The notes under the pieces are model-generated. The model searched no databases. It saw only the letters and a program-made list of their open reading frames with translations, and had not been told where the DNA came from. Made by a program: the position numbers and the translations under genes. Positions 997 through 45,095 of a stretch of DNA of 64,000 bases are shown in pieces. Positions within the stretch are counted from its first letter, which is position 1; every line of letters begins with the position of its first letter. This DNA is from Schmidtea polychroa (lineage: Eukaryota): assembly GCA_044892525.1 (NCBI GenBank), contig CM097886.1:75392001-75456000 (forward strand). Direction: 5' to 3'.

Positions 997-2517
997 TCAT
1001 AATTGCGACATCAGTACTCCATCGTAAGCCCTTATGGCTTGTCTGAAATATAGCTTGGTCCATATACCCATAGCTATCAATGTAGTTATTAGTGATAGTA
1101 CGGCCGATACCGTAATCCATACCCCTATGGGTATTTTCAGAATGTATCCTGCATTAAAGTTTGTGATGGCATTACAATCACAACAGTTTGTCATGTTTGG
1201 GGGCGTTTGACAAGATATTTGTTTAATGGGTGACAACTGTTTAAGATGTTGCCACATTGCGGGATGTATCACCATGTTCTCCCTGACTACTTTTGGTGGT
1301 GTTTCCGTTACAACTGGCTGTTTCAGAGGTAATATCTCCTCAAATACCTCGAACCACCTATCGTCCTGTCGTTTCCTCGGACAATAGTATATAACATGAA
1401 CCGAATATTCTACTGACTGATTTAGATACATTTCTTGGGAGGGAGAGTTCTGGTCTAACCATAATGTTCCTCTCGTGGTTGATCCGTCTAGAATGCTGAT
1501 TTTCACTTTCTCCTCCCTGTTAATTTGCTGGCTAAATTTTACTTTCTCCTTCTCGTAGGATATCGATATGCGATTTGTGAAATCTGCCGTCCGTAGGATC
1601 CAATTTGATACGTGATAGGTATACCAACCATTCCGATATAACCGTGACGCTGCGATATGCAGTTTATAATCCGTCTCTGCTTTTAAATCATATAATTCCC
1701 ACTCTTTGTCTTCTGAATCGAGTTGGCGGATCCGCAAGTACCTGTTGTAGAAGTGTAAATTGAACTTTGTAGCATTATCGCACGTCGTGAGTATGCTAAT
1801 TCCGTGGTATGTCCTTATAAAATGTAAATGCTCTACTTGCATCGCCATAGGCTGAAAATATGCCTTTCTATCCCTTTTTGCCATTGCTAAAGTCATCATA
1901 CAGCTTATTATCAACAAAAAGTATACCGATTTTGGAACACCCCGTGATCTCAATGGGTATCTGTGCTCTTGTGGTTCTTCAATAGTGTTTAGTTTCGCTT
2001 GTTTCTCTGGTGCTTTTACTTTTGAATTTCCCGAGGTTCCTTTTGTTGAGATTTCGCACTTTTTACACCGATTAGCATGCACCATTATTGGTTCTGCTTT
2101 TCTGTTGGCTACTAGTTGTAATATGAGGTTTGTATCTGTGGTTCTCAATACCTCGTATGGCCCTTTGAAATTTCGCATGAGCTTTGGTGATAAGCCTTTC
2201 TTGTTGTAATGACTTTCCAACATCACCTGGTCTCCAACTGATATGCCATGATCCTTGGCTTTTCTGTCATGATAGTCTTTGGATGCCTCCTGATTATATT
2301 TTATACTGAGACCCGCTCTAGCCCATGCTTCCTGCATTCTTTCCCTCATTTCCATTAGATAATCTTCCTGATCTAAATACTGTGTTGCTATAGGGAAAAA
2401 CAGCAGATCTACCGGCATTTTACTTTGCCTTAGGTACATTAAGTAAAATGGCGTTTCACCTGTTCCTTCGTGTACTGCATTCCTGTATGCAAATAAACAG
2501 GATGGAATGTGGATATC
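997..2517 (-). pseudogene. Integrase C-terminus (GPY/F) plus C-terminal extension with signal peptide-like segment, ectodomain and TM anchor
   Basis: KLMRNFKGPYEV motif, hydrophobic YFLLIISCMMTLAMA, and C-terminal IPIGVWITVSAVLSLITTLIAMGIW. Separated from the INT core by a TGG>TAG nonsense at 2518; copy 2 reads DWD in frame here. Confidence 0.85.
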
Positions 2518-4743
2518 CTAATCCGTTTGCCCTGAATTTTCATATGATGCTAACATATTAGCTAATGTTCCATTAAATCGCTCTACTAGCCCATCCGTCT
2601 GAGGGTGATATGGGGAAGTGTTTAACTTTAGAACTCCGAAATAATCATTTATTCCTTTGAGCAAATTACTCATGAAATCAGCTCCTCGATCTGTTAATAG
2701 CTTCGTAGGTACTCCATACCTAAAGACAATTTGTTCAACGAAAATTCTAGCTATTGTATCAGCTTTGTGATTAGGCATCGGGTAGGCTTCTGGCCACTTA
2801 GTCAAGTAATCGCAGAAAACTAATATGTACTTGTTTCCGCTATTAGATTCTTTGAATGGCCCCAACACGTCCATTGCCGTCATTTCCATAGGTGTAGATG
2901 GTACCGGCATCGGCTTCATTGGTACGTGTGGTTTCTTTCCGGTATTTCTTCTGGTGATACAGATCTTACATGTCTGACACCAGGTTTTAACATCTTGTTT
3001 CATACCGGGCCAAAAATATTTTTGTTTTAACCTCGACAATGTTTTTCTAGATGACAGGTGGCCTCCTAAGGCTCCATCGTGATACTGCAACATGAGTGCT
3101 TCACGGTATTTCTTAGGAACCATTATAACGTTATCTCGTATATCTGAATATTTAACTAATCCCTCTTCCGGCACAAATTTATCTTTATTCTTTTCCCAGT
3201 ATTTCGTGAATTCTGTGGGCACGTATTTCGCTTCTAAGGCTTGTCGAATGGCATTGATTTCTTCATCAGCTTTTTGTGCCTCCATTAAATCAGCTAGCCG
3301 GTCGGCTTCTCGAGTCAGTGTGAAGATAGTCCCTTCGAGACGTCCTTCCTTCACATCTTCTGCTTCCTCCTCCTGGTCCATTCTCGATAAAGCGTCTGCA
3401 TTTCCATTATGATCTCCTTTTCTATAATGGATTTCTATGTCATATGGCTGTAAAATTAATGCCCATCTGACCAGTTTTGATGTATCCATTGTGTGTTTTG
3501 TCAGCCACTGTAATGGTCTATGATCGGTGTATACTATGATCTTCCGACCCCATAGATAAGTCCTAAACTGGGTTATAGCATACACAATTGCTAAAGCCTC
3601 TAGTTCTATCACTGCGTAGTTTCTCTCGTGTGGTTTTAATCCTCGGCTTGCGTATGCAATTGCATACTCGTCTCCTAGGTCATCTCTCTGACCTAGCACA
3701 GCACCTATGCCCCGAGTGCTGGCATCTGTCATAACCAAAAATTGTCTCTCAAAGTCTGGAAATCGCAATATAGGTGGCTTGACGAGCTTTTCCTTGAGCA
3801 TATCAAATGCTTCCTGCTGTTCTGTTCCCCACACAAATTTGACGTTTTTGCCTTCTAACTGCGTGAGTGAAAAGGCTATAACCGAAAAGTTTCTAATGAA
3901 TTTTCTGTAGTATCCAACTAGACATAAAAACCCTTTGATATGTTTAACGGTTTTAGGCTCCGGGAAATTCTTTACCTTTTCGACATTAGCTGGATCGGGT
4001 TTAACCCCGTCTCGTGATATGATATGGCCAACATATACCACTTCAGGTTCAGCCCATTTACATTTGGTTGGTTTCACTTTCATGTTGGCATTGATCAACC
4101 TCTTGAACACATCTTCCAAATGTTCCAAGTGTTTTTCCAAATTTGGCGAGAATACTATGACGTCGTCAATGTATACCATCGCATGATGTACATCCATGAG
4201 CATCAAATTCATTGCTCTTTGAAATGTGGCTGGAGCTCCGGTGAGTCCAAATGGCATTACGTTATATTCGTAATGACCCATACTCGTAGAGAACGCTGTT
4301 ATTGGTATAGTCTCGTCTTTTAACTTAATTTGATAAAATCCCTTTTGGGCGTCCATTACTGAGAAGAACCTAGCGTTTCTCATACGTCCATAGATATAAT
4401 CTAACAATGGCAATGGATGGCTATCTTTGCACGTAGCTTCATTAACCATGCGATAGTCGTTACATAATCGTACTGATCCATCCTTCTTAGCCACCACTAT
4501 CATTGGTGATTGATATGGTGATTTACTATGCCTGATTATGCCATGTTTTAACATCAATTTCACCTGTTTATCTACTGATTCCTCCAGACTGAATGGAATA
4601 CGGTATGGTCTCAGCTTTATAGGTTTTGTATTTGTGAGGACAATCTCATGTTCTAACAGGTTTGTTTTTCCTAGATCGTATTCATGTTTCGCGAATACCT
4701 GGTCGTATTTCCTCAACAGCATATTTACTTGAATGTTTTCCTT
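2518..4743 (-). pseudogene. Gypsy reverse transcriptase - RNase H - integrase core
   Basis: RT motifs CNDYRMVN, MPFGLTGAPATFQR, YIDD. RNase H TDAS...ELEALA...YTDHRPL. Integrase HHCC (H..GGHLS...CKIC) and MDVLG/TDRGADF/DGLVERFN. Domain order PR-RT-RH-INT. Confidence 0.95.
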
Positions 4744-5130
4744 TCAGGTTAGCACTTTGCTGTTTGCTGTAGGTGCATCATAGTACTCAATGTCTGGATC
4801 TCTTTCTTCTGCCTTTACGGTGAGTATCGACCCTTCTCCCGTGGCTTGTGGCTCGTTTTGTTTCCAGATTCTGCCCACTCTGGTATCTGGATATAAGTAA
4901 AGTGGTTTAATGTCCAGATTGGCTACCCTAATTGGTATTCTGCCATTGACTATTAAACCTAAGCTATGCGTGACTGGTATATTGTATTTCTCCGAAAACA
5001 ACTTCACCTTCCCAATTATTGCTTGTAGCTACAAAGCAAACTGTTTCCGCTCTGGGTGGTATGATAGTTGTATGATCTATATAAGCTGTATCATCGTTGT
5101 AAATTTTCCTCTTTTTACCTCGTGCTCGGA
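4744..5130 (-). pseudogene. PR-RT linker resembling a degenerate dUTPase-like fold
   Basis: IIPPRAETV...EP...IPIRVANL...LYPDTRVG pattern, as seen between PR and RT in many animal gypsy elements. A 20-nt deletion relative to copy 2 (EPDEK missing) causes a frameshift. Assignment is an inference. Confidence 0.5.
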
Positions 5131-5480
5131 TTAACAATCCAGATGCACAATCGAATACTACTCCTCGAAGTCTTTTTAGGATGTCCATACCTAATAGACA
5201 TTCGGCTGGGAGACTTCTCATCACTATGATGTCGTGATGGAGCTCCTGATCACATAGCTTAATCTGGCATGATAATGACCCTATTACGTTTAATGAGGAT
5301 CCGTTTGCTCCTGTTAATTTTACTCCTGCCGGTTTTAGCGACTGTAGTTCATGATGGTTTAACAATTTTGCTTCAATTATGGTACCATCTGCTCCTGAGT
5401 CTATAACCGCATTGACTGTATGTCGGTTCACTCTTATTTTTATCATTGGCTTTTTATCCAAGTTCACTGGGTTATTGACC
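5131..5480 (-). CDS. Retropepsin-type aspartic protease domain
   Basis: KIRVNRHTVNAVIDSGADGTII...ECLLGMDILKRL within ORF 4964-8455. Confidence 0.9.
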
Positions 5481-5989
5481 ATCAAGATAGTATCGTGCGA
5501 GATACCGATTGTGTTTGCTCTCGTTTGTTCTGCTTCCAGTAATTCAGGATCACTCAGTTGAGGGTTGTACTCTTTAAATTTAGCTTTAATTGACTCTAAC
5601 GCTTCCTTTGGATAGTGCACTTTAGGTAATTCTGGCAATGTTGAACATGTCAAATTATTAAATATGGTATCTTCACCGATTTTCCAATGGTGTCGTCCTG
5701 TTCTGAGTGTTGTTTCCTTTGAGTGTTCCCGCCTCTCGTTTGGTGTGGATGGTAAACTCCTCAAAGTTGGCAATTGTACATATCTTGGGCTTTTCTTGAA
5801 TCTGGGTGACCTTATGTCGAATTTTTGGTCGGAACTGTCATATTCTCCTTCTGAGGACTGTTTTCTCACATAGATTTCCTTTGATTGGTCATATGGAGGA
5901 AAATATTCCTTAAATCTCGATTTTCTTTGTTGCTGACTCGGTTTTTTGTTGTAGTTCTGTTTTCGTGATTGATTTGATCTTGAAGATGT

Positions 5990-7993
5990 TTCACGAGAGC
6001 CTCCATTACCTCCTCCCTTTGAATTGTTATCGTCCCGATAACTAGAATACTCTTCCATTTCTGTTCCAATTACTTCATGCTTGACCAAATGTTTCTGTCT
6101 AATTTCTTTAATTTCCTTTCTGTGATGTTTGAATAATGCAAACTCTGCACACATAGGAGATAGTCCTAATAGCAGTTTCCATGACAATCCTCCAATTTTG
6201 GATATGCTATATGTTGACATCAGTTGTGTAATTATCAGCTTTAAAATTACAAATATTGCGTAAATTCCTGAACATCCAGCAACGAAAATACCAAAATTGG
6301 TAAATCGTCCCCATATTTTCATCATTACGTTCTTTGCTGCTTCTTTATAGTGTTCCGGTCCAAATAATAGATTGTAATCTGGTCGTATCAAATTATCATG
6401 ATAAATCGTTCTTATAATTTCCGTGATACCTCTGTCTCTGATTTGTGGGAATAGCAATGTCCTTCTTGCCTCCTCGATATCGTCGGGAGTATAAATCCCT
6501 CCTTTTGCTAGTTCGTCTAATGACCTGAATTCCAGATTATCCTTTAGTTTAGTTACCTCCAGGGTCTCTACCCGTTGTGTAGATGGTTTTCTTTCCGGCA
6601 GAGATATCCACATGTCATTTATTTTATATAATGGTGATATTGCTGGGTTGCATACTGCTGGTTGAGGTTTGGCGTTTTCCTCAAGTAACTTTCTGGTTAC
6701 TGGCATAACAAATCTCAATTTTCCTTGGTAAGATACTGGCAGTTCTAGAGTGCATTGATTAAATCTGGCTAATTGTACTTCAACTGGTTTACACTCATAG
6801 CTATATATAGCTTCTCCCATGATTCTGCCAAACATTCCATCTTCCAATAACATTGGAGTAACCAACTCTGGGTTAACAATAGATATTGCTAATCTATTTC
6901 GAACTATTTCACGATTTAGCTTACAATCGCTTAATATCACCTCTTGATACATATCTTGCATTTGTCCTTGCAGAATATGATATAAATAATCTACTTTATT
7001 ATTTATATAATTCGTGATTTTGATATCCTTTACATGGAGGACCTTAGAGTTTCGAATATATTCCCTTGACAGGAAAATTCCTTTGTAGTTCGTCTCGTAT
7101 ACTCTTTTCCCACATTTAGTCTTTTTATCTTTTCGGACAAATCGAATTGCTTCCGTCTTGTCTTCCGATATCAACACTAGAGGTGTGTTTTCCTCTCCGA
7201 TGTCTTCCTTCTCTTGTTTGTTGATTTTCTTCAACGTTTTTGCTTTATCCCAAACCTTTTCTGGATTCTGGGAGTCCCGATATTTAGTTCCATTTAGTTT
7301 TCTAAAAGGAATTTTCTTGAGAAAGGCCAACTCACAATGATCTCTCATTTGTTCGTAAATTAATGTAGTGGTTCCCGTTTTACAACTACCGAACTTGGCA
7401 TTGCATTGCGGATGTGCCATCAATTTTCCTGTGGCCACATCGAATGTTCCCTCGTATTCTCGTAGCTCCACTGAGTAATCTTCTATGTCTACCACATAGG
7501 AAACTAAATTGCTACCGCGAATTTTCTTTCTTCCTTCGCAGGTTCCATCTGAGGCAATTGTTCCTCCTCGAGTGATTGTTATTCCCAATGTTTTCCCAAT
7601 TTCTGCTGAAATTGATACCTCGTTGTCTATCCTCACACTTCCTTTTCGAAATGCATCTAGGCAATCTTCGGGCATTATGTTTACCGGCCTTGGTATTAAT
7701 GTTGAGGATAGAAAAGCAGAATAGCTATTACTACCGCAATAATATTCGAATGTAGCTCTCTGAACTCTACATTCCTTTATCGTAGTTCTATAGAATTCAC
7801 TCTCTTGGTAGACATAATATTCTACCTTTTCCCCTTGATGGACCTTCTCGGGATACGCCTCTTTGCACTCAATTGCATCTACTAGCGAATATACCCGAGA
7901 TAGTTTAGGGTTTCCACAGTCAAATACCGTTAATGAGTTTGTTTGTTTTAATATGCCCATCATTACTAGGAACATCAGGATCATGCTTGTCAT
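5990..7993 (-). CDS. Envelope-like glycoprotein of chuvirus-G type (class III fusogen-like) embedded in the polyprotein
   Basis: Signal peptide MTSMILMFLVMMGILKQTNS followed by LTVFDCGNP...SLVDAIEC...YYCGSNSYS...TCEG...YINNKVDYL...DCKLNREIVRN...GEAIYSYECKPVEV...CTLELPV...CNPAISPLY, then TM FGIFVAGCSGIYAIFVILKLII. The cysteine and motif spacing matches chuvirus-like glycoproteins as I recall them; needs HMM confirmation. Confidence 0.8.
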
Positions 7994-8472
7994 GTTTCCT
8001 GTTCCTGAACTAACATTATTTATGGCTTCTTCCACGACTTCATATCGTGGTTTTGGAATCGTTTCCTTTTCCCAAAATTTGTTTACGGTCATCCATACCT
8101 CCAGGTAATAATCTACCATTTCGACTATTTGATCGATTTCTCGTTCTATAAGCCTTTTATCATCCCCTACTCGGGCTAAGGCATTTTGAATTAACAATGA
8201 TAGTGATGTTAACACTTTCCCTCTTGTTAATCCTTGCTGTACGAATGCTTCTATGGTATCCTGAATATCTCCTGTTGATACATCTTTGGATATTCTATCC
8301 ATTGTCTTTTTGGCTTCTTTTGTTATCTTCTTAACTTCGATCTCCTTGATTTTTGGAATTCTCCATTCGGGCCTGATAATCCCGACCATTTGTTGTATAC
8401 GTTGCCACAATAACAACCTTTCTGACGTTGTCTCATCTCCCGCCTGGTCGTCCATTTCTTGGGCTATCCCTG

Positions 8473-9582
8473 CTAATGTTTTAACTGGATTTTCCGAATC
8501 GTTTCCGGATTTAACTGCTCCTTGGGTGGAGGTTTCATTTGATCCTTTCTAGGACGTCCTCGTCCATCTTTTTTCACTTTCTCCGGAGGTTTTTCAGTAT
8601 CCGGATTTGTTACTGCTTGTGACCTAGTAGCTCCTACGTTTGTTTCTCCTGGATTTAATCTGACGTATTCTGAGAAGTAATCTTCCTCGTCAATGTCCAC
8701 CATTTGACAGGGATTAATTTCCTCTAGTCTTATTTCCTCGATTTCTTCCGCAATTTCGTTTGCTATATCTGGCAGTCTCATTAATGACCATTGTGACTCG
8801 GGTGGAGTTACTGGGATGATCATTACCGTGGTTGTTGCCAACGGTAGACAACCCACATCCACTAGATATTCATCATCATCCACTTGCCTGCCATGAACCA
8901 TTATCAGGAATATACCTGTAGTTTGATCGGTGGCAATCACATCTCTCCTCAATATTTTAACCTTGATATAGCAATTATAAATCATTGTTAATGGTTCTTT
9001 TCCCATCATTCTCACGTCTAGATTAATGTTGCCTTGTCTATCAGGCTGACTTCGGATAGCTTTCCCATTTTTCCTCATTAGCGCTTCAATTTGCGTCTGG
9101 AATGGGCTTGTTTCCTTTACCACTGGTAGTATAAGTGGAATTATTGCTTCCAACAAATCTACTGGTATTCGTAATACTAACATCCAGTCAAGTATTTCCT
9201 TTATAGTTTCTCCATCCCGTGGGGATTTCTGCAATTCCAACCCTAGTCGCTGGGATAATTGTTGAGTTTCCTCCAATCTCTCGATTTCCATCTGAGTAAT
9301 CAAGAATACGCTATCTTGATCCATTACTGCCACTGGCTTTGGTGCTCTCTTTGCTGTGAGCTTCGTCACTCTACCTGGGAGTATCCCGTTCTGTAGAAGT
9401 GTTTGGTTTGCTTCTAATTTTATTCCACATAAGTATAAGTCATATCCTTGATGCTTAATACTTGTCAACGTTTCCGTAAATTTATCGGCTCGACTTCTTA
9501 CATTTATATCGAGATTATACTCTTTATTCTGTGGGAGTCTTATATTGAGCTGGGCATCTTGGAGATCCCACTCATGTTCCAT
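8473..9582 (-). pseudogene. Gag-env spacer with two ubiquitin-like segments and an AT-hook
   Basis: LYLCGIKLEANQTLLQNGI and INLDVRMMGKEPLTM...IMVHGRQVDDDEYLVDVG resemble the ubiquitin LIFAGKQLEDGRTLSDYNI pattern. KKDGRGRPRK is an AT-hook motif. Copy 2 is in frame on both sides; copy 1 has a TAA at 9586 and a 1-nt deletion at ~8480. Confidence 0.6.
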
Positions 9583-9585
9583 GAG

Positions 9586-11097
9586 TTATCCTAATTTCCT
9601 TAGGATTTTGTACGTGTCGTTATGATACTTTGGATCATCTTCGACCTGCGATATCAGTTTTACTACTGTATCGATTTCGTGAATTTTAATTTCTGTTTCT
9701 CCCAATTTTCCCAATTGTCTGGCCAGCTTCTGCTGGTACTCATATCTGGAATCCGCCAGTTTTAAACATTTTGTTAGGGTATCTGACCCTTCTTTTACCT
9801 TTGCTTTCCCTGGCAAGGTTCTATCGAACTCGCTTAGTATGGTGGCCATACTAGGTTCATCATCGGAACTCTCCTTTGATTCCGTTTCCTGAAGGTCCTC
9901 TCTAACGGAGTCCTTTTTTCTGAGAAATTCATCTCTTCCAACTTCTACCATAAAAATGGTGCCTTCTTGGTCGGTTAATCTAGCCAACCTATTCTTTTCC
10001 TCCTGGATTTCCATTTCCAGTTGTTGCAGATAAGTTAACCCTTGATCCTGGTTAACCATAAAAGTGGTCTTAGGCTTGTTCACATTACCCTTATCGGTAT
10101 TTTTATTGAACTGACCCGTATTTCCACTCTGATTCTGAGGACATGACCTCATCATATGTCCGAATTTCCCACATCCGTGACATTTTATCTTTCCTGATGA
10201 ATTTACATCATCTCTTTTAATTGTACTAAAATTATTGCTGTTCTGAGGACTTCTAGTCTTGCAGACCGCAGCAACATGTCCCTTACGTTTACATTTTTCG
10301 CATTGCAAATTCTGCACTCTACAATTTTCCGCACCGTGGTTATTCCGTCCACATTTGGTACATTGTATACTTTTGCGATTGTCCATACTTTTCCTGCTGG
10401 TACAATCTTTCGCTATATGTCCTTTTCTATGGCAATTGAAACACTCTACCGGTGTTCTTTCACTGTTTACCAGGAACATAGTTGACTTTTCCAAGCTGCT
10501 TTCAATTACGACAGCTTTCCGTGTCAATTCGTCAAAATCATCACTAGTATGTAATATTAGAGCGTTCCTCATTGTAGGAGTAAGTCCTGCCCATAGCTGA
10601 TCCTTAACTAACAATTCTGTTGGCTTTGCCCATGCGGTTTTTGGTCCAAATGCTCTTTCAGCGATTAATGATAGCTGGTGTGCAAATTCCCCCACATGTT
10701 CATTGGCATTTTGTTTTCGATGATAAAATTGTTGTCTAAATATCCTTCCCGCATCTCCGGGCAATATTCGAGCAGTCATTTGTTCTCTCATTTCCGCCCA
10801 TGTTTTTGGTGCTTGAGCAACTGGTAATGCCATAATGTCATTATATTTTTCTCTTGCCAGCCCCTTCAAATATATAGGTAGCCTTTGTATCATGATATTA
10901 TCTGGATAAGCATATGCTTTGGCCATCTGCAGTGCTCGAAGTGAGGCGGGATAGCCGGGATATTATCCCGGCATTGATTATGTAGGCGGAATTGCATCCC
11001 GGCACTTCATTTCATATAATCTATAGGTTTATCCCGGTACTTATTTCATTTTTTAGGCACACAAATACTGCAATTAAGGTCACACATAGTACATCCA

Positions 11098-11606: not shown

Positions 11607-11750
11607 TGTTAGGTTCGATGGGTATGTCTTCGAACTAACACAAAAATGTTCTATCTGACTCCAAGTAAATAATTTAGGCGTGTAGGTAAATCAATAAATA
11701 AGAAATATGTTTTAAATATTTATTTGTCAATAAAAAGTTAGTTACACGTT

Positions 11751-11836
<86 letters not shown>

Positions 11837-12734
11837 CACCACGCTGCCTTTCTCTAAGTAAAGAAAACGGTTATTCAAACCGCCCTGAAGAGTGTTACTA
11901 AGGATCAAGGCTGGCCCTAAATGCGCCAACAGCCCGATATAGGTGTAAGGAAAAGAAGCAGGGTAGATCACCAAATTTTACGCTATAGAGTTAACCCAGA
12001 AATTGGTTATTTGATATTGAATTATTTGATATTATTTGATATTGAATAACGATACAACACGAAATCAGTGATGATGTTATATTGTCCCTTTATTTAGTTA
12101 AAATAAATAAATAAATATTTTCAAGAATAAAACAATAATAATACTAACTATACGATAATCCGACCACTAATATGAACCTCAGATGGGTGGTTGAACTTGT
12201 TAATCTAATCTTCCCTTTTTCTTAAATTATTTCTTCAATAAAAGTTAGAGTTAAGCGAAAATAAAAAATTCCAAATTATTTGTTAATCAATAATCGTTGA
12301 TTGACTAAGACTGTTAAATGATGATCTGTCCAAATTTAATGTAACTATCTGTCTCTTAATGCGAGCTAATCAGTTTCGATTTATGTCGACTTTTTTTTTG
12401 AACTACTTTTAATCTGTCGTGTCCGATCTTTTTCTCTCGTCCCTTCAATCTAATTTTCATCTGCTATTTATATAATTTTTTACTTACTTAATTCTATTAA
12501 TAGTAATTGTTTAATTACTATTTTTATTATATATTTTTAAATAATTTCCATAATTCTATTTGTAGTAATTATTTATTACTAATTTTATTTTAGTTTTAAT
12601 TTTAGTGTTTAATTTCTATTTTTGGTAATTTTAAAATACTATTTTTATTTTACTTCATATTTTAGTAATTAATTATTATTTTAATTATTATTTAATTTCG
12701 AACCTTCAATTTCGGTTCCTACTGAACCCCAACA
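11607..12734 (-). repeat. 5' LTR of family A copy 1
   Basis: TGTTAGGTTC...GAACCCCAACA termini shared with the copy 2 LTRs. Adjacent PBS. Internal (TA)n expansion at ~11754-11831. Confidence 0.93.
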
Positions 12735-24624: not shown

Positions 24625-27222
24625 TATTTATTTGTTATTAATAATAATATTTATTATTATTGGCCTTGTCTAATAAATTTTTTAATTGTTGCCAACCTCA
24701 AAATTCTGTCCACTCGACAAACAAGTATTCGAACAAAGAAACAGATGCGCCGTTATTCAGTTAATTTAACTAGAAATGCTAACCCTACTTATCGAAAAGT
24801 TGGATGTTATATAATATGACATATGTGATAATAAATTATTATCATGTAAAGCATTGTTCTCCAAACTTTTTTCGATGTCCTAAACTTAAAAAATATTTCG
24901 CGACACCCCTGAAAAATATTTTTGATGTAAAATTTTGCATCAAATTTTATGAAAGTTTAATGCCGTTTAACTTGGAGGTTTGAGAAAAAAAGATTAACAC
25001 AAATTATTTTTATTTTACGTATTTTTATTTCTTTTGTGCTCGATGTTCCGAGCAAACAACATCGAAACGAGGCAAGAGCGACGACAAACTAACTCGCATT
25101 TCTTCATCAACTGTCTGCAATCTTTCATGTTTCTTTGATTTGATCTCAACCAGTACCGAAAATCAAAGTTCGTATGTAGAAAACGGAAGAAATAATTGTC
25201 ACGCAATGCCTACCAAATTCAGAAATGACGTCTATTAGTCTAACGCTGGCATTGTGTCTACTAGGGATTTTGGTAGTTCTCATTTGTCGCTTTGGTGATT
25301 CGTCGAATTTAAAGTTATTGGGGATTCCCATGCAATTGCCGTAGAACCAGTGCTGTTCTTTTCCAGCTTAATTCTGTGATTTGCTTTTCAAAGTTTTTAT
25401 ATATTAATTTTTCTTTGAGGAGGGTGTTAGCATATATAATGCTATGTCTTCCTTGATATTGGGATACCTGATGACTCTGCATTCCTGAAAATACCAGATA
25501 ACTGATATGCCATAATAGGCTAAAAAGATATGCATGAGTTTCCTTATAAGAGATATTCGCATGCTGAATTTTATTGCTACCTGGAGCTCTCCGTAAATAT
25601 AGATTTTAAAATAAATATATAAATATTCATATATAATTTTTCCCTCGGGAGAGTCTGTAATTGTTATAATTGCGATATCAGCACTCTTTTGGCTTGTTTG
25701 AAATACAGCTTATTCCAAATGCCCACAGCCACTATTAGTGGTTGCTAATTATAATATTGCTAACACTAATCAATACCCCTATGGGTAATTTAATGAGGTA
25801 CGCTGCCTTGAAATTTGTAATGGCATTACAGTCGCAACAATTTGTCCAATTTGGAATGGTTTGTAATGGCATTACAGTCGCAACAATTTGTCCAATTTGG
25901 AATGGTTTGGCAGAATATTTGTTTCGTATTTGGTAATTATCTGAGATGTTGCAACATAGCGGGATGTATCACCATACTCTCCCTGACTACCTTTTTTGTA
26001 ACATTTTTGAAATAGGTTTTCTAAGTTGTTTTCCTCAAATACCTCAAACCACTCGTCAATTCCTCATTTTTTCGTTCTATAGTATATAACTAGAACCAAA
26101 TATTCTTTGGACCGATTTAGATACGTTACTTTGGTAGGATTGTTATTATCTAACCATACCGTTTCTATCGCTGATTTTCCATAACCTTTACTCTCTCCTC
26201 ACCACAGTTTTGCCGTCGGAACACCAATTTTGTTGAGGTCTCAATATTTGAGATGTTCAAATTTACTAGTTCTTAGGTAAATATAATGAAAATAAGTCAT
26301 GATATAAATATTTATTAGTAATAAAAATTACCGAAAATAAACAATTCCAATTTCCAAATAAATTTGCTTCAAACAATTATCAACACTAGATGATTTCTTT
26401 TAATCAATTGCTTCCTTGAGTTACTTTCGAAATGATTGCAAAATATGTATTTCTGTTAGTATGTTATGTAGTGCTTGCGTATGTACGATTACTGCAATAT
26501 TTTTATAAAGATTTGTGAAACAATTTCTGTGCTGTTTCGGGTTTTGATTATTTCTCAAGATTTACCTTTGAAATTGCTCTGTCGCTAATTTTTGGGCAAT
26601 TGTAATGAATAATGTTAGGGTATTTATACTATTTTAAAATTTTATAAATAAATTATTTTATTTCCGGCCTATACGCACGGAATAATATTATATGATTTTT
26701 TATATATTTTACCAGATGTTTTTATAATATTAGGTTATTTTCTTTCCTTTATATCTGTTTCGAGTGAAAACAAGAAAGAGAAATAATTTCAATTAACTCA
26801 GACAATACAAATTGACCATCATCTGACATAGCAGCCTCATCTTCAAGGTCATCCCAAATAATCATTGATTTATTCCTTGAAACAGAAATATGACTCTTTG
26901 AATAGATATTGGTTGCAATCTTTTATTTTGAAGCAGCCTTGATCATACGACTATTGATTTTCATTGTGATATCAAGCAGTGGAATGTTCATTGAATACTT
27001 TTTCATTTCATCTGTGAAGTCATCATAATAATCACCAGATGATTTAATAACATTTTCCAACGATTCTTTAATAATTGAATATTTGCATAACGGGTCTGAT
27101 TCTTTAAGATTCTTCATTTCAAAAATTCACCAAAAACTTCCTGGTTAAACAAAATTTAAAAACTCTATCACAATCAAAATTACAAAAACTAATTAATAAA
27201 ATAATATGACATACCTATTACT

Positions 27223-34410: not shown

Positions 34411-34995
34411 ATCATTGAACAAAAATTAAACTCGAAAAAATTAAACTCAAAAATTAAACTCGAACAAAAATTAAACTCGAAAACCATTCTCGAAAAACAT
34501 ACTTGCCATGCACAATTTTACGCGTCTGTGTGCGCACACAACCAAAATACACAAGGAAAGTCAAAAGCGCACACAGACGCGAGCATCGAATTAAACATCC
34601 TCCTCCCCTTGACACTTTGGTGTCAATCTCTCATCCCCATTAACTTCTCCTTCTTTTGTGATCAAGCATAATTTGGATATGCACCTTAACACCTCCTTTC
34701 CTTCACATTTTATCCTCATCACGCGTTGCTTTCCGTCTTCTCCAGGTATCACTTCGATTACTCGCCCCATTGGTCACAAAAATATTAGTAAACATATAAT
34801 ACGCATAATATACACATAATATACATAAACACAAAAAAGACATTTTATAATCATTAATTATCTTGTTCCGGCTGGCTAGCGGGAACCACGCTCTGCTACC
34901 ATGTTCATTTTTAAATTCAAAATAAAGCATAATCATTTTATTTCTGAATAATAACAATTTGTCCCTGTCCATACCAGGAGATAATGCCATCATTG
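34411..34995 (-). mobile_element. Miniature BEL/Pao derivative, left part (partial LTR, PPT, integrase C-terminus, iMet PBS, LTR segment)
   Basis: Minus strand 34595-34775 encodes PMGRVIEVIPGEDGKQRVMRIKCEGKEVLRCISKLC...GEEDV* (DUF5641-like BEL integrase tail). PPT GGGGAGGAGG precedes TGTTTAATTCG. PBS TGGTAGCAGAGCGTGGTT at 34884-34901. Confidence 0.8.
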
Positions 34996-38413: not shown

Positions 38414-38611
38414 TCCTGAAATAAAAATCATTAACCATAATATCAGATATACTGATATGCCATAATAGGCTAAAAAAATATGCATGAGTCTTATTATAAA
38501 AGATCTACATATGCTGAATTTTAATGCTACCTGGAGCTCTACGTAAATATAGATTTTAAGATATATATAAATATTTATATATGATTTTTCCCTCGGGGGA
38601 GTCTGTAATTG

Positions 38612-41600
38612 TCATAATTGCGACATCAGTACTCCATTGTAAGCCCTTATGGCTTGTCTAAAATATAGCTTGGTCCAAATACCCATAGCTATCAGTGTAG
38701 TTACTAGCGATAGTACGGCCGATACCGTAATCCATACCCCTATGGGTATTTTCAGGATATATCCTGCATTAAAGTTTGTGATGGCATTACAATCACAACA
38801 GTTTGTCAGGTTTGGGGTCGTTGGACAAGATATTTGTTTGATCGGTGGCAACTGTCTAAGATGTTGCCACATCGCGGGATGTATCACCATGTTTTTCCTG
38901 ACTACTTTTGGAGGTATTTTCGTTATTACTGGCTGTTTCAAAGGTAATATCTCCTCGAATACCTCGAACCACCTATCGTCCTGCCGTTTCCTCGGACTAT
39001 AGTATATAACTAGAACCGAATATTCTATGGACTGATTTAGATATATTTCTTGGGAGGGAGAGTTCTGGTCTAACCATAATGTTTCTCTCGTGGTTGATCC
39101 GTCTAGAATGCTGATTTTCACCTTCTCCTCCCTGTTAATTTGCTGGCTAAACTTTACTTTCTCCTTCTCGTAGGATATCGATATGCGATTTGTGAAATCT
39201 GCCGTCCGTAGGATCCAATTTGATACGTGATAGGTATACCAACCGCTCTGATATAACCGTGACGCTGCGATATGCAGTTTATAATCCGTCTCTGCTTTTA
39301 AATCATATAATTCCCACTCTTTGTCTTCTGAATTGAGTTGGCGGATCCGCAAGTACTTGTTGTAGAAATGTAAATTGAATTTTGTAGCGTTATCGCACGT
39401 GGTGAGTATGCTAATTCCGTGGTATGTCCTTATAAAATGTAAATGCTCTACTTGCATCGCCATAGGCTGAAAATATGCCTTTCTATCCCTTTTTGCCATT
39501 GCTAAAGTCATCATACAGCTTATTATCAACAAAAAGTTTACCGATTTTGGAACACCCCTTGATCTCAATGGGTATCGGTGTTCTTGTGGTTCTTCGGTAG
39601 CGTTTGGTTTCACTTGTTTCTCTGGTGCCTTTACTTTTGGATTTCCAGAGGTTCCTTTTGTTGAGATTTCGCACTTTTTACACCGATTAGCATGCACCAT
39701 TATTGGTTCTGCTTTTCTGTTGGCTACAAGTTGTAATATGAGATTTGTATCTGTGGTTCTCAATACCTGAAATGGCCCTTTGAAATTTCGCATGAGTTTT
39801 GGTGATAAGCCTTTCTTGTTATAATGACTTTCCAACATCACCTGGTCTCCAACCAATATGCCATGCTCCTTGGCTTTTCGGTCACGATAATCTTTGGATG
39901 CCTCCTGATTATATTTTATACTGAGACCTGCTCTAGCCCATGCTTCCTGCATTCTTTCCCTCATTTCCATCAGATAATTTTCCTGATCCAAGTACTGTGT
40001 GGCCTTCGGAAAAAACAACAGATCTACTGGCATTTTACTTTGTCTCAGATACATTAGGTAAAATGGTGTTTCACCTGTTCCTTCGTGTACTGCATTTCTA
40101 TATGCAAATAAACAGGATGGAATGTGGATGTCCCAATCCGTTTGCCCTGAATTTACATATGATGCTAACATATTAGCTAATGTTCCATTAAATCGCTCTA
40201 CTAGCCCATCCGTCTGTGGGTGATATGGGGAAGTGTTCAATTTTAGAACTCCGAAATAATCATTTATTCCTTTGAGCAAATTACTCATGAAATCGGCTCC
40301 CCGATCCGTTAATAGCTTTGTAGGTACTCCATACCTAAAGACAATTTGTTCAACGAAAATTCTAGCTATTGTATCAGCTTTGTGATTAGGCATCGGGTAG
40401 GCCTCTGGCCACTTAGTCAAGTAGTCGCAGAAAACTAATATATACTTGTTTCCGCTATTAGATTCTTTGAATGGCCCCAACACGTCCATTGCCGTCATTT
40501 CCATAGGTGTAGATGGTACTGGCATCGGCTTCATTGGTACGTGTGGTTTCTTTCCGGTATTTCTTCTGGTGATACAGATCTTACATGTCTGACACCAGGT
40601 TTTAACATCTTGTTTCATGCCGGGCCAAAAATATTTTTGTTTTAACCTTGACAATGTTTTTCTGGATGACAGGTGGCCTCCTAAAGCTCCATCGTGATAC
40701 TGCAACATGAGTACTTCACGGTATTTCTTAGGGACCATTATAACATTGTCTCTTACATCTGAATATTTGACTAATCCTTCCTCCAGCACAAACTTGTCCT
40801 TATTCTTTTCCCAGTATTTCGTGAATTCTGTGGGCACGTATTTCGCTTCTAAGGCTTGTCGAATGCCATTGATTTCTTCGTCAGCTTTTTGTGCCTCCAT
40901 TAAATCAGCTAGCCGGTTGGCTTCTCGAGTCAGTGTGAAGATAGTCCCTTCGAGACGTCCTTCCTTCACATCTTCTGCTTCTTCCTCCTGGTCCATTCTC
41001 GATAGAGCATCAGCATTACCATTATGATCTCCTTTTCTATAATGGATTTCTATGTCATATGGCTGTAAAATTAATGCCCATCTGACTAGTTTTGAAGTAT
41101 CCATTGTGTGTTTTGTCAGCCACTGTAATGGTCTATGATCGGTGTATACTATGATCTTCCGACCCCATAGATAAGTCCTAAACTGGGTTATAGCATACAC
41201 AATTGCTAAAGCCTCTAGTTCTATCACTGCGTAGTTTCTCTCGTGTGGTTTTAATCCTCGGCTTGCGTATGCAATTGCATACTCGTCTCCTAGGTCATCT
41301 CTCTGACCTAGCACAGCACCTATGCCCCGAGTGCTGGCATCTGTCATAACCAAAAATTGTCTCTCAAAGTCTGGAAATCGCAATATAGGTGGCTTGACGA
41401 GCTTTTCCTTGAGCATATCAAATGCTTCCTGCTGTTCTATTCCCCACACAAATTTGACGTTTTTGCCTTCTGTGTGAGTGGAAAAGCTATAACCGAGAAG
41501 TTTCTAATGAATTTTCTATAGTATCCAACTATGAGCCTAAAAACCCTTTGATATGTTTAACGGTTTTAGGCTCCGGGAAATTCTTTACCTTTTCAACATT

Positions 41601-42113: not shown

Positions 42114-45095
42114 CAGGGCCGGATTTAAGCATTTGTTGGCCCTAGGCAAAGGAGCTTTTTGGGGCCCTCAAAATTAATTAGTATATTTCAAGGAAATTAT
42201 GTAGGTTATTTTATTTGCTAAAAGTATTTAAGAAATAATTATTTACTACCTATTTATATTTTGAAATATATTTATTAAATAATTCCGTTTAAAAATAAGA
42301 TACATATGTCATGTCAAAAATATAATTTTACAAAACTTTCTTTCTAAATTTTTCTAGAGCATATTGATCAATCAATGAATCAAAATCAATAGCTTTCAAT
42401 TTATCAATGTTACAAGATAATAAGGCCAAATTATTCAAAATCTTTTGATTCATCGTTGACCTCAAAAAATTTTTAATCAGCTTCAATTTTGAGAAACTTC
42501 TTTCGCCAGTGCAATTAGCAATCATTAGACACAAAAAAATTCTTAAAATTGTTTCCAAATTTGGAAAAGCAATTTCCAAATTTTTTTCCTTAATTATCTC
42601 GTAGAAACTCAAATGATTTGGATGATCATTTGGCCAATCGTTCCTGATATATTCGTGAAATTGTAGTAACTCGAAAAAAAGTGAATCGTCTATATCATCT
42701 GGATATTTTTCAACAACGTTATTCACATGTTGTTTCAAATCTTCTTGCGACAATTCAATATTTGTCAAAAAACCAAACACTTTAGAAATTTCCAAGTAAC
42801 AATCAGAGCGCTGAATCAAATTCAAACTCCTCCATTTTATTCAATAAATTATTTGCTTCATTTCTAGTGTTTCCATCAAAATTTGCATCTTCAATGATGG
42901 CATTTAGTGCTTCCATTACATTTTCATAGTTTTCGTGAATGACCTTAACTGACTCAGAACGAGCACTCCATCTAATCTTTGATAACGATTTTACCGTTCT
43001 ATTTGAAAATTCAACTAACTTGTTCCATCTCTTAGTAGACGATGAAAAAAAATTGTAAATTTCCTGAATTAATCCGAAAAAATTGATTGATTCTATGCAA
43101 CAGTCCGCACCTGAATTTCCAACCAAATTCAAAGAATGAGCACTGCACGGTAAAAAAATTGCTTTATCATTTTTTTCAAGAACTTTTGCCCTCATTCCTT
43201 TGTATTTTCCGGCCATATTCATAGCGTTGTCATACGATTGTGATCGGCAATCTTGAAAATTTAACCCAATATCCTTTTCAAAAAATTCCAATGAAATGTC
43301 AGCTAAATATTCTCCAGTGTGATTCTCTATCTCAATAAAGTTTAAGAATCGCTCGATTGGTTTAAAATTGATTTGACCAACGTATCTGATAATCATGCAC
43401 AATTGATCTTTGTGTGATATATCAGGGTGGAATCCACAGACATTCCAAAATATTTTGATTGTTTGATGTCATCAGAAATCGACTTCAATACTGTTTTTGC
43501 CATCAGATCGAGCAATTCCTCAAAAATTGTTTTAGAGAGATAAGACGTTTTTCCAGATCCTGGATTACCAAACTTTCTAATGTGCTCTGCTAAAAATGGA
43601 TCAAATTTTGCAATAAGTTCCAAGAGTCCAATGAAATTGCCACTTCCTTCCATTCCAAAAATTTCATTTGATCCTCGAAATGGTAAATTTCGTTCAACAA
43701 TGGTGCAAATAACAGCTACAACTCGTTCTAAGACTTTTCTCCAGTAAATCCTTTCTTGTTGTATTTCTTTTTGCAATTGATCCGACACAGAATAGTTACT
43801 TTTTCTAGTTAAATATGTAACTAAAGCATTACGATGTTCAGAAGAGTTTTGATGGCTTTTGATTGAGGAACCAGCATTTTTCCAATCTCGCAGGCCATTG
43901 GTTGCTAAATTGAAATTTGAAGCAGTGAGTAATTTGCAAACAAAACAAAAAACATTTCCAATTTTAGGCGAATATACAAGCCATTCGCGAGTGTACTTTT
44001 CTCCATTTGTTTTTTCATCAAAGAATAAAGTCTTAGAGCAATATCGAACAGTATTGTCATTATAGAGCTGTTTGGAAGAATGAAAGTTTTCTGTTGAATG
44101 TTGGCAACTTTCAGGGCCCTTCTCAATCCAGTACAAAGTGTCTTCAGAAGACAATTCTCTCCATAATCCTACGTCATTCTCACGATTTGCATTTGGAGAT
44201 GATTTAATCAGGGATTCCACTAAATTTTCATTATTAATGTTATCTACCAGCTCCAAATTATTTTCGAAATAATTAAAAACTTGATTTGAACTTCCAGTGA
44301 AAATAGGTTGATTTGAAGTACTGGAAGAGACCTCTATTTGGTCGCTTTGGTGCCGATCTTCTTGTGCTACAAATTCACTTTCAGTTGCAGAATCTTTAGT
44401 GAAAAAACAATCTAGCTTAGGAATTTTCTTAATTTCTTCTTCTCTCTCTGCTTTTTTCTTCCTTTTAAACGCTCCGCTTGCGTAGTTTCGTTTCATTCTA
44501 TCTTAAATTTAATTAAAATATTTTTTAATTAAATTGATTAAATAATTTTAATATTTTTATACTATACCTAGATCTTAACAATTAATCAATTAAAAAAAAG
44601 CCTCACTTCGTCCTAAAATTGCTTTATTTTAAATTTTTTATTTTTAAGCCGATTTCCTTTGAAATAATTTTTTTCTTTTGTGTATAAAATTTTTACCAAC
44701 ACTCCAAAAAAATATGTTTCTACACAATAACAATTCGATTCCCGCCTTCGCAAATTTCAACCGACAAACTCCACTAATTATAACCCCCTTGGAGGTTGCG
44801 GAAATAAAGAAAAAATATTTTTTCAACTATAACAACTTTTAAAATTATTGGGGCCCCAAATTGTTGATATTTTAGAAAATTTCCTTAAATAAAAAAATAC
44901 GTACAATGTTTTTTTAATTCTTTATATAATACATGTATTTTATACTGTATTTTAATTTTTTTATATTTTAGTATATAAAAAATCCATTAAAAAAAATATT
45001 TTTTTGTGGCCCCTTAGATGATTTCGATTTTGGGGCCCCCAAAACTGCGGGCCCCTAGGCAGTGCCTAGTCTGCCTATAGGTAAATCCGGAATAG
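42114..45095 (-). mobile_element. hAT DNA transposon (2,982 bp) inserted in RT
   Basis: 8-bp TSD ACCACTAT (42106-42113, 45096-45103). Termini CAGGGCCGGATTTA / TAAATCCGGAATAG (right TIR degenerate). Confidence 0.93.
42328..44496 (-). pseudogene. hAT transposase (ZMYM1/DUF4371 type), two frameshifts
   Basis: CFVCKL TTF-type zinc finger, GNFIGLLELIAKFD, MSVDST, QSYDNAMNMAG, CSAHSLNL, WSAR and the hAT dimerisation motif ERSFSKLKLIKNFLRSTM. Confidence 0.92.

Follow-up and report, generated by a model that had tools for sequence, protein, structure and literature searches.

A predicted FN3-like membrane-protein module behind the integrase of a gB-type Ty3/gypsy element in Schmidtea polychroa

The element and its copies

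The window (the whole stretch of 64,000 nucleotides of Schmidtea polychroa DNA that was analysed) carries three related copies of a Ty3/gypsy element on the minus strand; Pfam matches and open reading frames (ORFs) place the module described here behind the integrase, at the element's 3′ end. The Pfam order is Gag with zinc knuckles, a Monjiviricetes (gB-type) fusion glycoprotein, protease (PR), reverse transcriptase (RT), RNase H (RH) and integrase (INT). Copy 1 begins, on the minus strand, with a 5′ LTR (11607-12734) recognized in the sequence by its TG...CA ends and a primer-binding-site-like stretch just inside, followed by Gag with three zinc knuckles (9586-10962, -; Pfam), which a stop separates from the next ORF. 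The internal gB/Monjiviricetes-type fusion glycoprotein (6218-7993, -; PF24664, E 6e-85) comprises, by sequence analysis, a signal segment (7934-7993), an ectodomain (6320-7933) and a transmembrane (TM) segment (6218-6295). A second short hydrophobic segment (WSWKL...), conserved in families A, C, D and E, follows that TM at about 6130-6180; if the protease is cytosolic, this segment cannot span the membrane completely. The protease, RT, RNase H and integrase core (2518-5500, -; ORFs and Pfam) are broken in copy 1: pol is split into ORFs 4964-8548 and 2518-4743, there are premature stops elsewhere too, and an in-frame stop at 2518-2520 borders the ORF at 997-2517 (-), which holds the module in frame with the integrase.

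In copy 2, the frame stays open from RNase H through the whole module (38612-41503). The module (38612-39544, -; from ORFs) is indeed in frame with the integrase, as the original prediction had it, and is 93% identical to that of copy 1. Its LTRs are 99.0% identical over 1036 nt and it is flanked by a 4-bp target-site duplication; beyond this duplication, the flanks at 34462-34995 and 51590-51872 have near-identical stretches of 170 nt and 112 nt in common. An insertion of about 2.9 kb (42116-45013) inside the RT of copy 2 has ORFs that we take to resemble hAT-type transposase. In copy 3 (25664-26180, -; sequence comparison), the diverged relative in which the module was said to be retained at about 25680-26230, it is present but truncated to residues ~149-310 and broken by stops, a frameshift and a short duplication; this decayed fragment is evidence of the module's presence, not of selection. 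Elsewhere in the window, non-LTR retrotransposon-type ORFs with zinc fingers and RT were seen by eye in several frames at 52961-60520 (+), and a 14-base unit forms a tandem array at 61543-62167.

A search of the organism's own genome with the module gave 132 matches (128/345 candidates scored), of which five rows belong to uninterrupted frames of 3366-3369 aa (one of these five has a stop within the matched part); this recurrence is not due to chance. In one such full-length copy, read from two adjacent stretches, Gag, gB, PR, RT, RH and INT are all in one frame. Besides the family of the window (A) and its sister family B, whose module is 38-41% identical to that of A, three further families (C, D and E) were located by way of the env Pfam family and a module search of the same genome, and their open frames (3334, 3419 and 3437 aa, respectively) encode polyproteins that end alike: signal segment, beta-rich domains, stalk, TM and short tail. 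The five families, A to E, are all those examined, and more may exist since the searches score only the best candidates. Families C and E are very young and numerous (>1000 first-look candidates per search, with many copies carrying near-identical modules). Between Gag and env (L077:3190-7998, L103:5268-8000), there are also weak ubiquitin-like matches in C and E and a weak Bcl-2-like match in C (Pfam E 7e-4, 8e-3 and 0.015).

The elements show the features of the Ty3/gypsy GAG-ENV-POL group with gB-type env: the PR-RT-RH-INT order, LTRs, a target-site duplication and a gB-type env between gag and pol (PF24664, E 6e-85 to 2e-87). An env in this position has been published for Platyhelminthes, Bryozoa and Nematoda (available text of PMC13524379), and the HSV/gB-type errantiviruses of Platyhelminthes described there (Chary and Hayashi, eLife 2026; Smed_errantivirus_1-6) likewise have a Ty3/gypsy Pol and a gB-type env between gag and pol, are also about 14-15 kb long and have many near-identical copies; the env of Smed_errantivirus_1 resembles the present one, as judged by eye only. 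The planarian element Burro/GYPSM1 is similar in having one polyprotein, an env in frame between gag and protease, and ubiquitin-like and Bcl-2-like cargo, but it is 25-30 kb long, of which the internal region takes up to 25 kb, and has an ORF of 4,873 aa and BIR and ankyrin cargo (available text of PMC6431247), whereas the present element has an ORF of about 3,366 aa and no BIR or ankyrin Pfam match and so falls outside Burro/GYPSM1.

Anatomy, predicted fold and selection

The module comprises 310 residues behind the integrase, in the same frame, in the order signal-like segment, two predicted beta-sandwich domains, cysteine stalk, TM and 19-residue tail. The layout originally described was found in full: ORF 997-2517 contains the GPY motif (about 2155-2163), HRYPLRSRG, a hydrophobic segment, LYDLKAETDYKLHIAAS, CCDCNA, a second hydrophobic segment some 28 residues long and a tail, and the stretch between both hydrophobic segments, earlier given as ~260 residues, is about 245-250 residues long. 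The integrase ends in a RYPLRS motif (1945-1962, -; alignment), which is kept in all five families, adjoins the signal segment in A and B and, we presume, resembles the foamy-virus chromatin-binding motif. A furin site at RSRG was considered and set aside, since RYPLRS would be cytosolic under the inferred topology. In family C (L077, near 3200), a RYPLRS-like RYNLRS stands directly before the Gag start.

The predicted internal signal peptide (1879-1929, -; 17 residues, Kyte-Doolittle peak 2.55 over 11 residues) has, on the basis of hydropathy and alignments, small residues at -3 and -1, in keeping with the von Heijne rule. It is followed by predicted FN3-like domain 1 (1588-1836, -; seven strands, the LYDLKAETDY motif and sequon N52) and predicted FN3-like domain 2 (1315-1581, -; seven strands and sequon N170), both drawn from the model, Foldseek and VIA, and then by a stalk (1150-1314, -; alignment) that is specific to A and B and holds conserved cysteines C240, C250 and C252 and sequon N245. 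The predicted TM anchor (1057-1143, -; hydropathy) peaks at 2.14 over 19 residues.

All three sequons are common to A and B and conserved among the rows that cover them (N52 in 9/10, N170 in 11/12 and N245 in 12/12), with a middle residue that varies. In each of the four families counted, the ectodomain has more sequons per residue than Pol does (3/246 vs 4/893, 4/305 vs 6/840, 8/335 vs 5/850 and 11/335 vs 3/850), and this density, together with their retention, fits a lumenal ectodomain. Hydropathy and sequon conservation agree with a putative type I membrane glycoprotein, which is what had been proposed.

The 19-residue tail (1000-1056, -; from the sequence), predicted to be cytoplasmic, has an S-Q-L end that forms a class I PDZ-binding motif, defined in the available text of PMC4810129 as S/T-X-hydrophobic-COOH. 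The C-termini are SQL in A, TTL in B, TRL in C, TWV in D and TFV in E; the motif is present in 4/6 rows of B (the other two, L043 and L044, end in KTL, which is no PDZ motif), in 12/12 of C and 2/2 of E, and D has TWV or TLV in 14/15 rows, with three places fetched twice. PDZ-type ends in five families fit a cytoplasmic tail.

AlphaFold2, given a 14-row alignment of all five families, produced two 7-strand sandwiches (pLDDT 75.9, pTM 0.55); the single-sequence model was poor (pLDDT 47), with one sandwich and a best Z of 7.9 to fibronectin. Foldseek against the PDB returned 263 matches at E<=0.001 (best 4.5e-6), and all 44 of the 44 among the matches listed are FN3-containing proteins, the receptor and tissue-factor entries being ones that we take to contain FN3. 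The TM-scores were low (0.27-0.45), probably because of the angle between the domains. In VIA, FN3 pairs rank first (Z 9.3, 9.2 and 8.8), led by the integrin beta4 FN3 pair (Z 9.3, rmsd 4.9, 165 aligned), with non-FN3 sandwiches (beta-galactosidase, DUF3244) within 1 Z of the top; for a single domain, CD148 (Z 8.2, rmsd 2.7, 81 aligned) and CD45 (Z 8.1, rmsd 2.6, 79 aligned) are tied with other sandwiches. Matches to viral structures include FN3 tail proteins, none of which stands out, and the Pfam fn3 family (PF00041) had no match in the A, C, D and E modules. The hallmarks of FN3 are a strand-B Trp and a strand-F Leu-x-x-x-x-x-Tyr motif; the L...Y is kept in the first aligned domain in 5/5 families, and W-x-P is found in C, D and E and missing from A and B. 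The module is predicted from these models to form two FN3-like seven-stranded beta-sandwich domains, which supports the FN3-like ectodomain of the original prediction, with two domains instead of one and the motif it had noted in the first.

In C, D and E, the alignment shows an extra N-terminal stretch corresponding to about one further domain, as against the two domains of A and B. The A/B profile matches the C/D/E profile over 122 columns (E 7e-6, probability 84%), with ectodomain identity between families as low as ~19% and RT-RH identity of A to C, D and E at 56-57%.

Selection was measured in 48 distinct family-A copies (54 loci less 6 fetched twice). These were chosen as best protein matches, which biases against amino-acid change, and because this choice biases singletons we relied on shared variants and on between-lineage values; singleton pN/pS in the integrase flank, which is inflated by truncated copies, was left unused. 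For variants in at least two of the 48 copies, the module has a pN/pS of 0.18 (70.5 N : 112.5 S, p 6e-30), compared with 1.11 and 1.50 in shifted-frame controls and 0.08 in the integrase, and the two domains have shared3+ values of 0.14 and 0.21. Between lineages, dN/dS is 0.15-0.25 within A and for A vs B and 0.27-0.39 among C, D and E, with dS saturated in deep pairs, including A vs B. The module is under purifying selection, and neutral evolution, an outcome that would have counted against the original prediction, is rejected. Its protein sequence changes faster than those of gB and Pol: D and E are 52% identical in the module against 82% in gB and 89% in Pol, and A and B are 41-43% identical in the module against 85% in RH-INT, at about the same pS. 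Lower identity at similar pS argues for faster protein change and not for a swapped-in piece.

The stop codon and the downstream open reading frame

The module ends in TGA followed by CAATTA (991-999, -; counterpart in copy 2 at 38606-38614), a CAR-YYA leaky-stop context seen in the sequence and its copies (motif from PMC2194720). TGACAATTA is found in 48/48 A copies and 5/6 B rows, the sixth reading TCA-CAATTA, although synonymous sites between A and B are saturated. A 22-base pattern across the stop gave 99 exact matches and its reversed control 0; the corresponding bases are TGA-TTATTA in a further, diverged copy (L038) and TAA-CAATTA in copy 3. In TMV, CAR-YYA alone drives readthrough, and the retroelement SIRE1 has an in-frame stop between pol and env (available text of PMC2194720); the present arrangement is similar to both: an in-frame stop closes pol, an additional ORF follows, and the six-base context is that of TMV.

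The in-frame downstream ORF (1-996, -; ORFs and profile matches) runs off the window and contains a first Met at codon 43, a hydrophobic segment and an exonuclease-homologous region. Its homologue behind the module in D and E (E 1e-20 to 1e-22 to the ORF of A and B) matches ISG20L2 (E 1e-7) and ISG20 (E 2e-6) and is an ISG20-like DEDDh exonuclease ORF; the catalytic motifs of A and B look degenerate by eye. No ORF of this kind turned up behind the stop of family C. LTR elements of rotifers likewise carry an exonuclease-type extra ORF (the DEDDy ORF3), in a paper whose available text does not describe the module (PMC5408684). The present element differs from these systems in the position of its leaky stop, at the end of the PDZ tail of a putative membrane protein, and in its additional ORF, which is related to ISG20-like DEDDh enzymes and has a degenerate appearance in A and B.

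Readthrough of TGA-CAATTA in A and B is, judging from its conservation, the more probable use of this context. Besides its retention at saturated sites, the 42-codon spacer ahead of Met43 is open and in frame in 42/48 A copies (in 15 of them, 3 nt are missing in frame, which may go back to a single event) and is also 42 codons long in B, while shuffled spacers are open in only 3-4%. There is a real, if lesser, possibility that the downstream ORF instead has a separate spliced or trans-spliced RNA that begins at Met43, with TGA-CAATTA kept for some other reason. Codons 1-42 are free of amino-acid constraint (pN/pS 1.37, 9 N : 2 S), whereas codon 43 onward is strongly constrained (0.08-0.10), and the spacer has no third-position excess between A and B (22/24/23 of 39). 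Met43 is preceded at a distance of 4 nt by an AG in A and in L039/L040, and pyrimidine-rich AG sites stand ahead of the ATG in D and E. On the other hand, B is missing the pyrimidine tract and L043 the AG, and D and E, with double stops and a spacer of 380-430 nt, have no leaky motif. In RNA folding 3′ of the stop, no structure common to A and B was found, and a low pN/pS in a shifted frame of the spacer (0.12; 2 N : 5 S, p 0.009, one of 18 tests) was taken as noise. The module is also covered by contigs from a single run that is presumed to be RNA; such contigs cannot show expression, splicing or readthrough.

Possible roles of the module

The sequence data establish that the module is fused in frame with the integrase, evolves under purifying selection, has homologues across the five families and keeps both its sequons and an S/T-x-L/V end. 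On this foundation and the structural models, we consider it likely (probability roughly 0.6) that the C-terminal module of the Gag-Env-Pol polyprotein is a second envelope protein, which would attach particles to cells or position gB at cell contacts, in line with the receptor-binding partner of the fusogen suggested in the original prediction. Its rapid divergence is what a binder facing the host would be expected to show. A single ORF would be translated into Gag, gB, Pol and the module, which would therefore be made in about equal amounts. The internal signal peptide behind the integrase would direct the FN3 domains into the ER lumen, where signal peptidase would free them and N-glycosylation would follow, with the TM stopping transfer, and the element's protease or a host protease would cut the integrase from the leftover signal anchor. 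The FN3 domains could then bind a host surface protein and the tail PDZ scaffolds, so that budding or fusion would be focused at junctions, much as with HTLV-1 Env and DLG1. In A and B, occasional readthrough of TGA-CAATTA would swap the PDZ end for an exonuclease-like extension. HTLV-1 Env and rabies G are likewise viral membrane proteins that end in a class I PDZ motif, which in HTLV-1 governs Env localisation and cell-cell fusion through DLG1, but there the motif is on the fusogen itself (available text of PMC4810129); here a separate companion carries it, because the tail of gB continues into the protease.

Taken as a whole, the fuller picture is possible but tentative: a gB fusogen and an FN3 attachment protein acting as a true two-protein entry machine, both cut from a Gag-Env-Pol polyprotein with several passages through the ER membrane, with a PDZ tail that steers spread to junctions and a leaky stop that swaps this tail for an exonuclease-like extension in one lineage.

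The main rival, which the same sequence evidence fits and which we regard as somewhat unlikely, is that the module is a real surface protein whose target is the host cell and which has no part in entry. As a receptor mimic or decoy, it would bind a ligand or occupy PDZ polarity scaffolds and might, for example, block superinfection or change the stem-cell niche, as the ubiquitin-like and Bcl-2-like cargo may do. The predicted architecture is that of cellular FN3 receptors and adhesion molecules, PDZ tail included: tandem-FN3 type I proteins (CD45, LAR, CD148, DCC/neogenin, integrin beta4, class II cytokine receptors) have a similar fold to that predicted and a similar signal-FN3-FN3-TM-short-tail plan, although the module is only 9-20% identical to them, has no Pfam fn3 match or signalling domain and is borne on a polyprotein. 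Cargo of this kind is known from Burro (available text of PMC6431247) and is suggested by the ubiquitin-like and weak Bcl-2-like domains of the related families. A fast-evolving surface protein would suit host manipulation equally well. Against the mimic, the module is fused to the polyprotein, hence made with gB and Gag, and keeps its position in all five families examined, whereas the exonuclease ORF was not seen behind the stop of family C.

It is improbable that only the membrane segments matter, tethering Pol to the ER or budding membrane with the ectodomain as a spacer. The signal segment directly after the integrase in A and B and the low (~19%) ectodomain identity between families would suit such a tether, but both domains are under purifying selection (0.14 and 0.21), the predicted fold and the sequons are kept, and a second TM and a conserved C-terminal motif would be superfluous. 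Least probable is a recently captured host FN3 exon in neutral drift: FN3 folds are typical of animal cell-surface proteins and have 90 matches in this genome, but the drift itself is refuted by the pN/pS of 0.18, the module occurs in five families that, for A against C, D and E, have only 56-57% identity in RT-RH, and its profiles score no better on host FN3 loci (best E 0.006 among the 30 best of 90) than on reversed controls (0.008).

Capture of a host domain, the alternative raised in the original prediction, is plausible as the ancient origin, but no close host donor was found among those 30 loci. Searches for relatives outside the genome gave 0/574 candidates of near length, 0 matches to profile A1 in 1.84 billion, 0/7192 longer proteins (weak evidence), 0 in PDB sequences and 0/271 viral-contig stretches confirmed; these blanks weigh little, as the protein collections searched may hold few eukaryotic retroelement proteins.

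The env-inside-polyprotein layout is already known, the second membrane-protein module is apparently undescribed, and the leaky-stop context is new here; the original prediction had mentioned neither that context nor the PDZ-type C-terminus. No publication describing the module was found in the literature on gypsy, errantivirus, planarian or Burro elements, with slight coverage of subscription journals and Repbase reports. The available text on the platyhelminth errantiviruses contains no mention of fibronectin, readthrough, attachment or accessory, and the sole domain it discusses after the integrase is a chromodomain (PMC13524379); likewise, neither FN3 nor a second membrane protein is described for Burro in the available text of PMC6431247.

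If the module is a second envelope protein, it would be a rare case of an LTR element retaining a receptor module of the animal FN3 type, and of a C-terminal docking motif that coincides exactly with a recoding signal. Herpesvirus gB requires partner proteins for attachment and triggering, and the fusogen is, to our knowledge, the only such protein described for gB-type errantiviruses. If true, a conserved surface protein at its side would name the missing attachment part of the gB-type errantiviruses, and the tropism and cell-to-cell spread of these elements would become testable in an animal where RNAi works.
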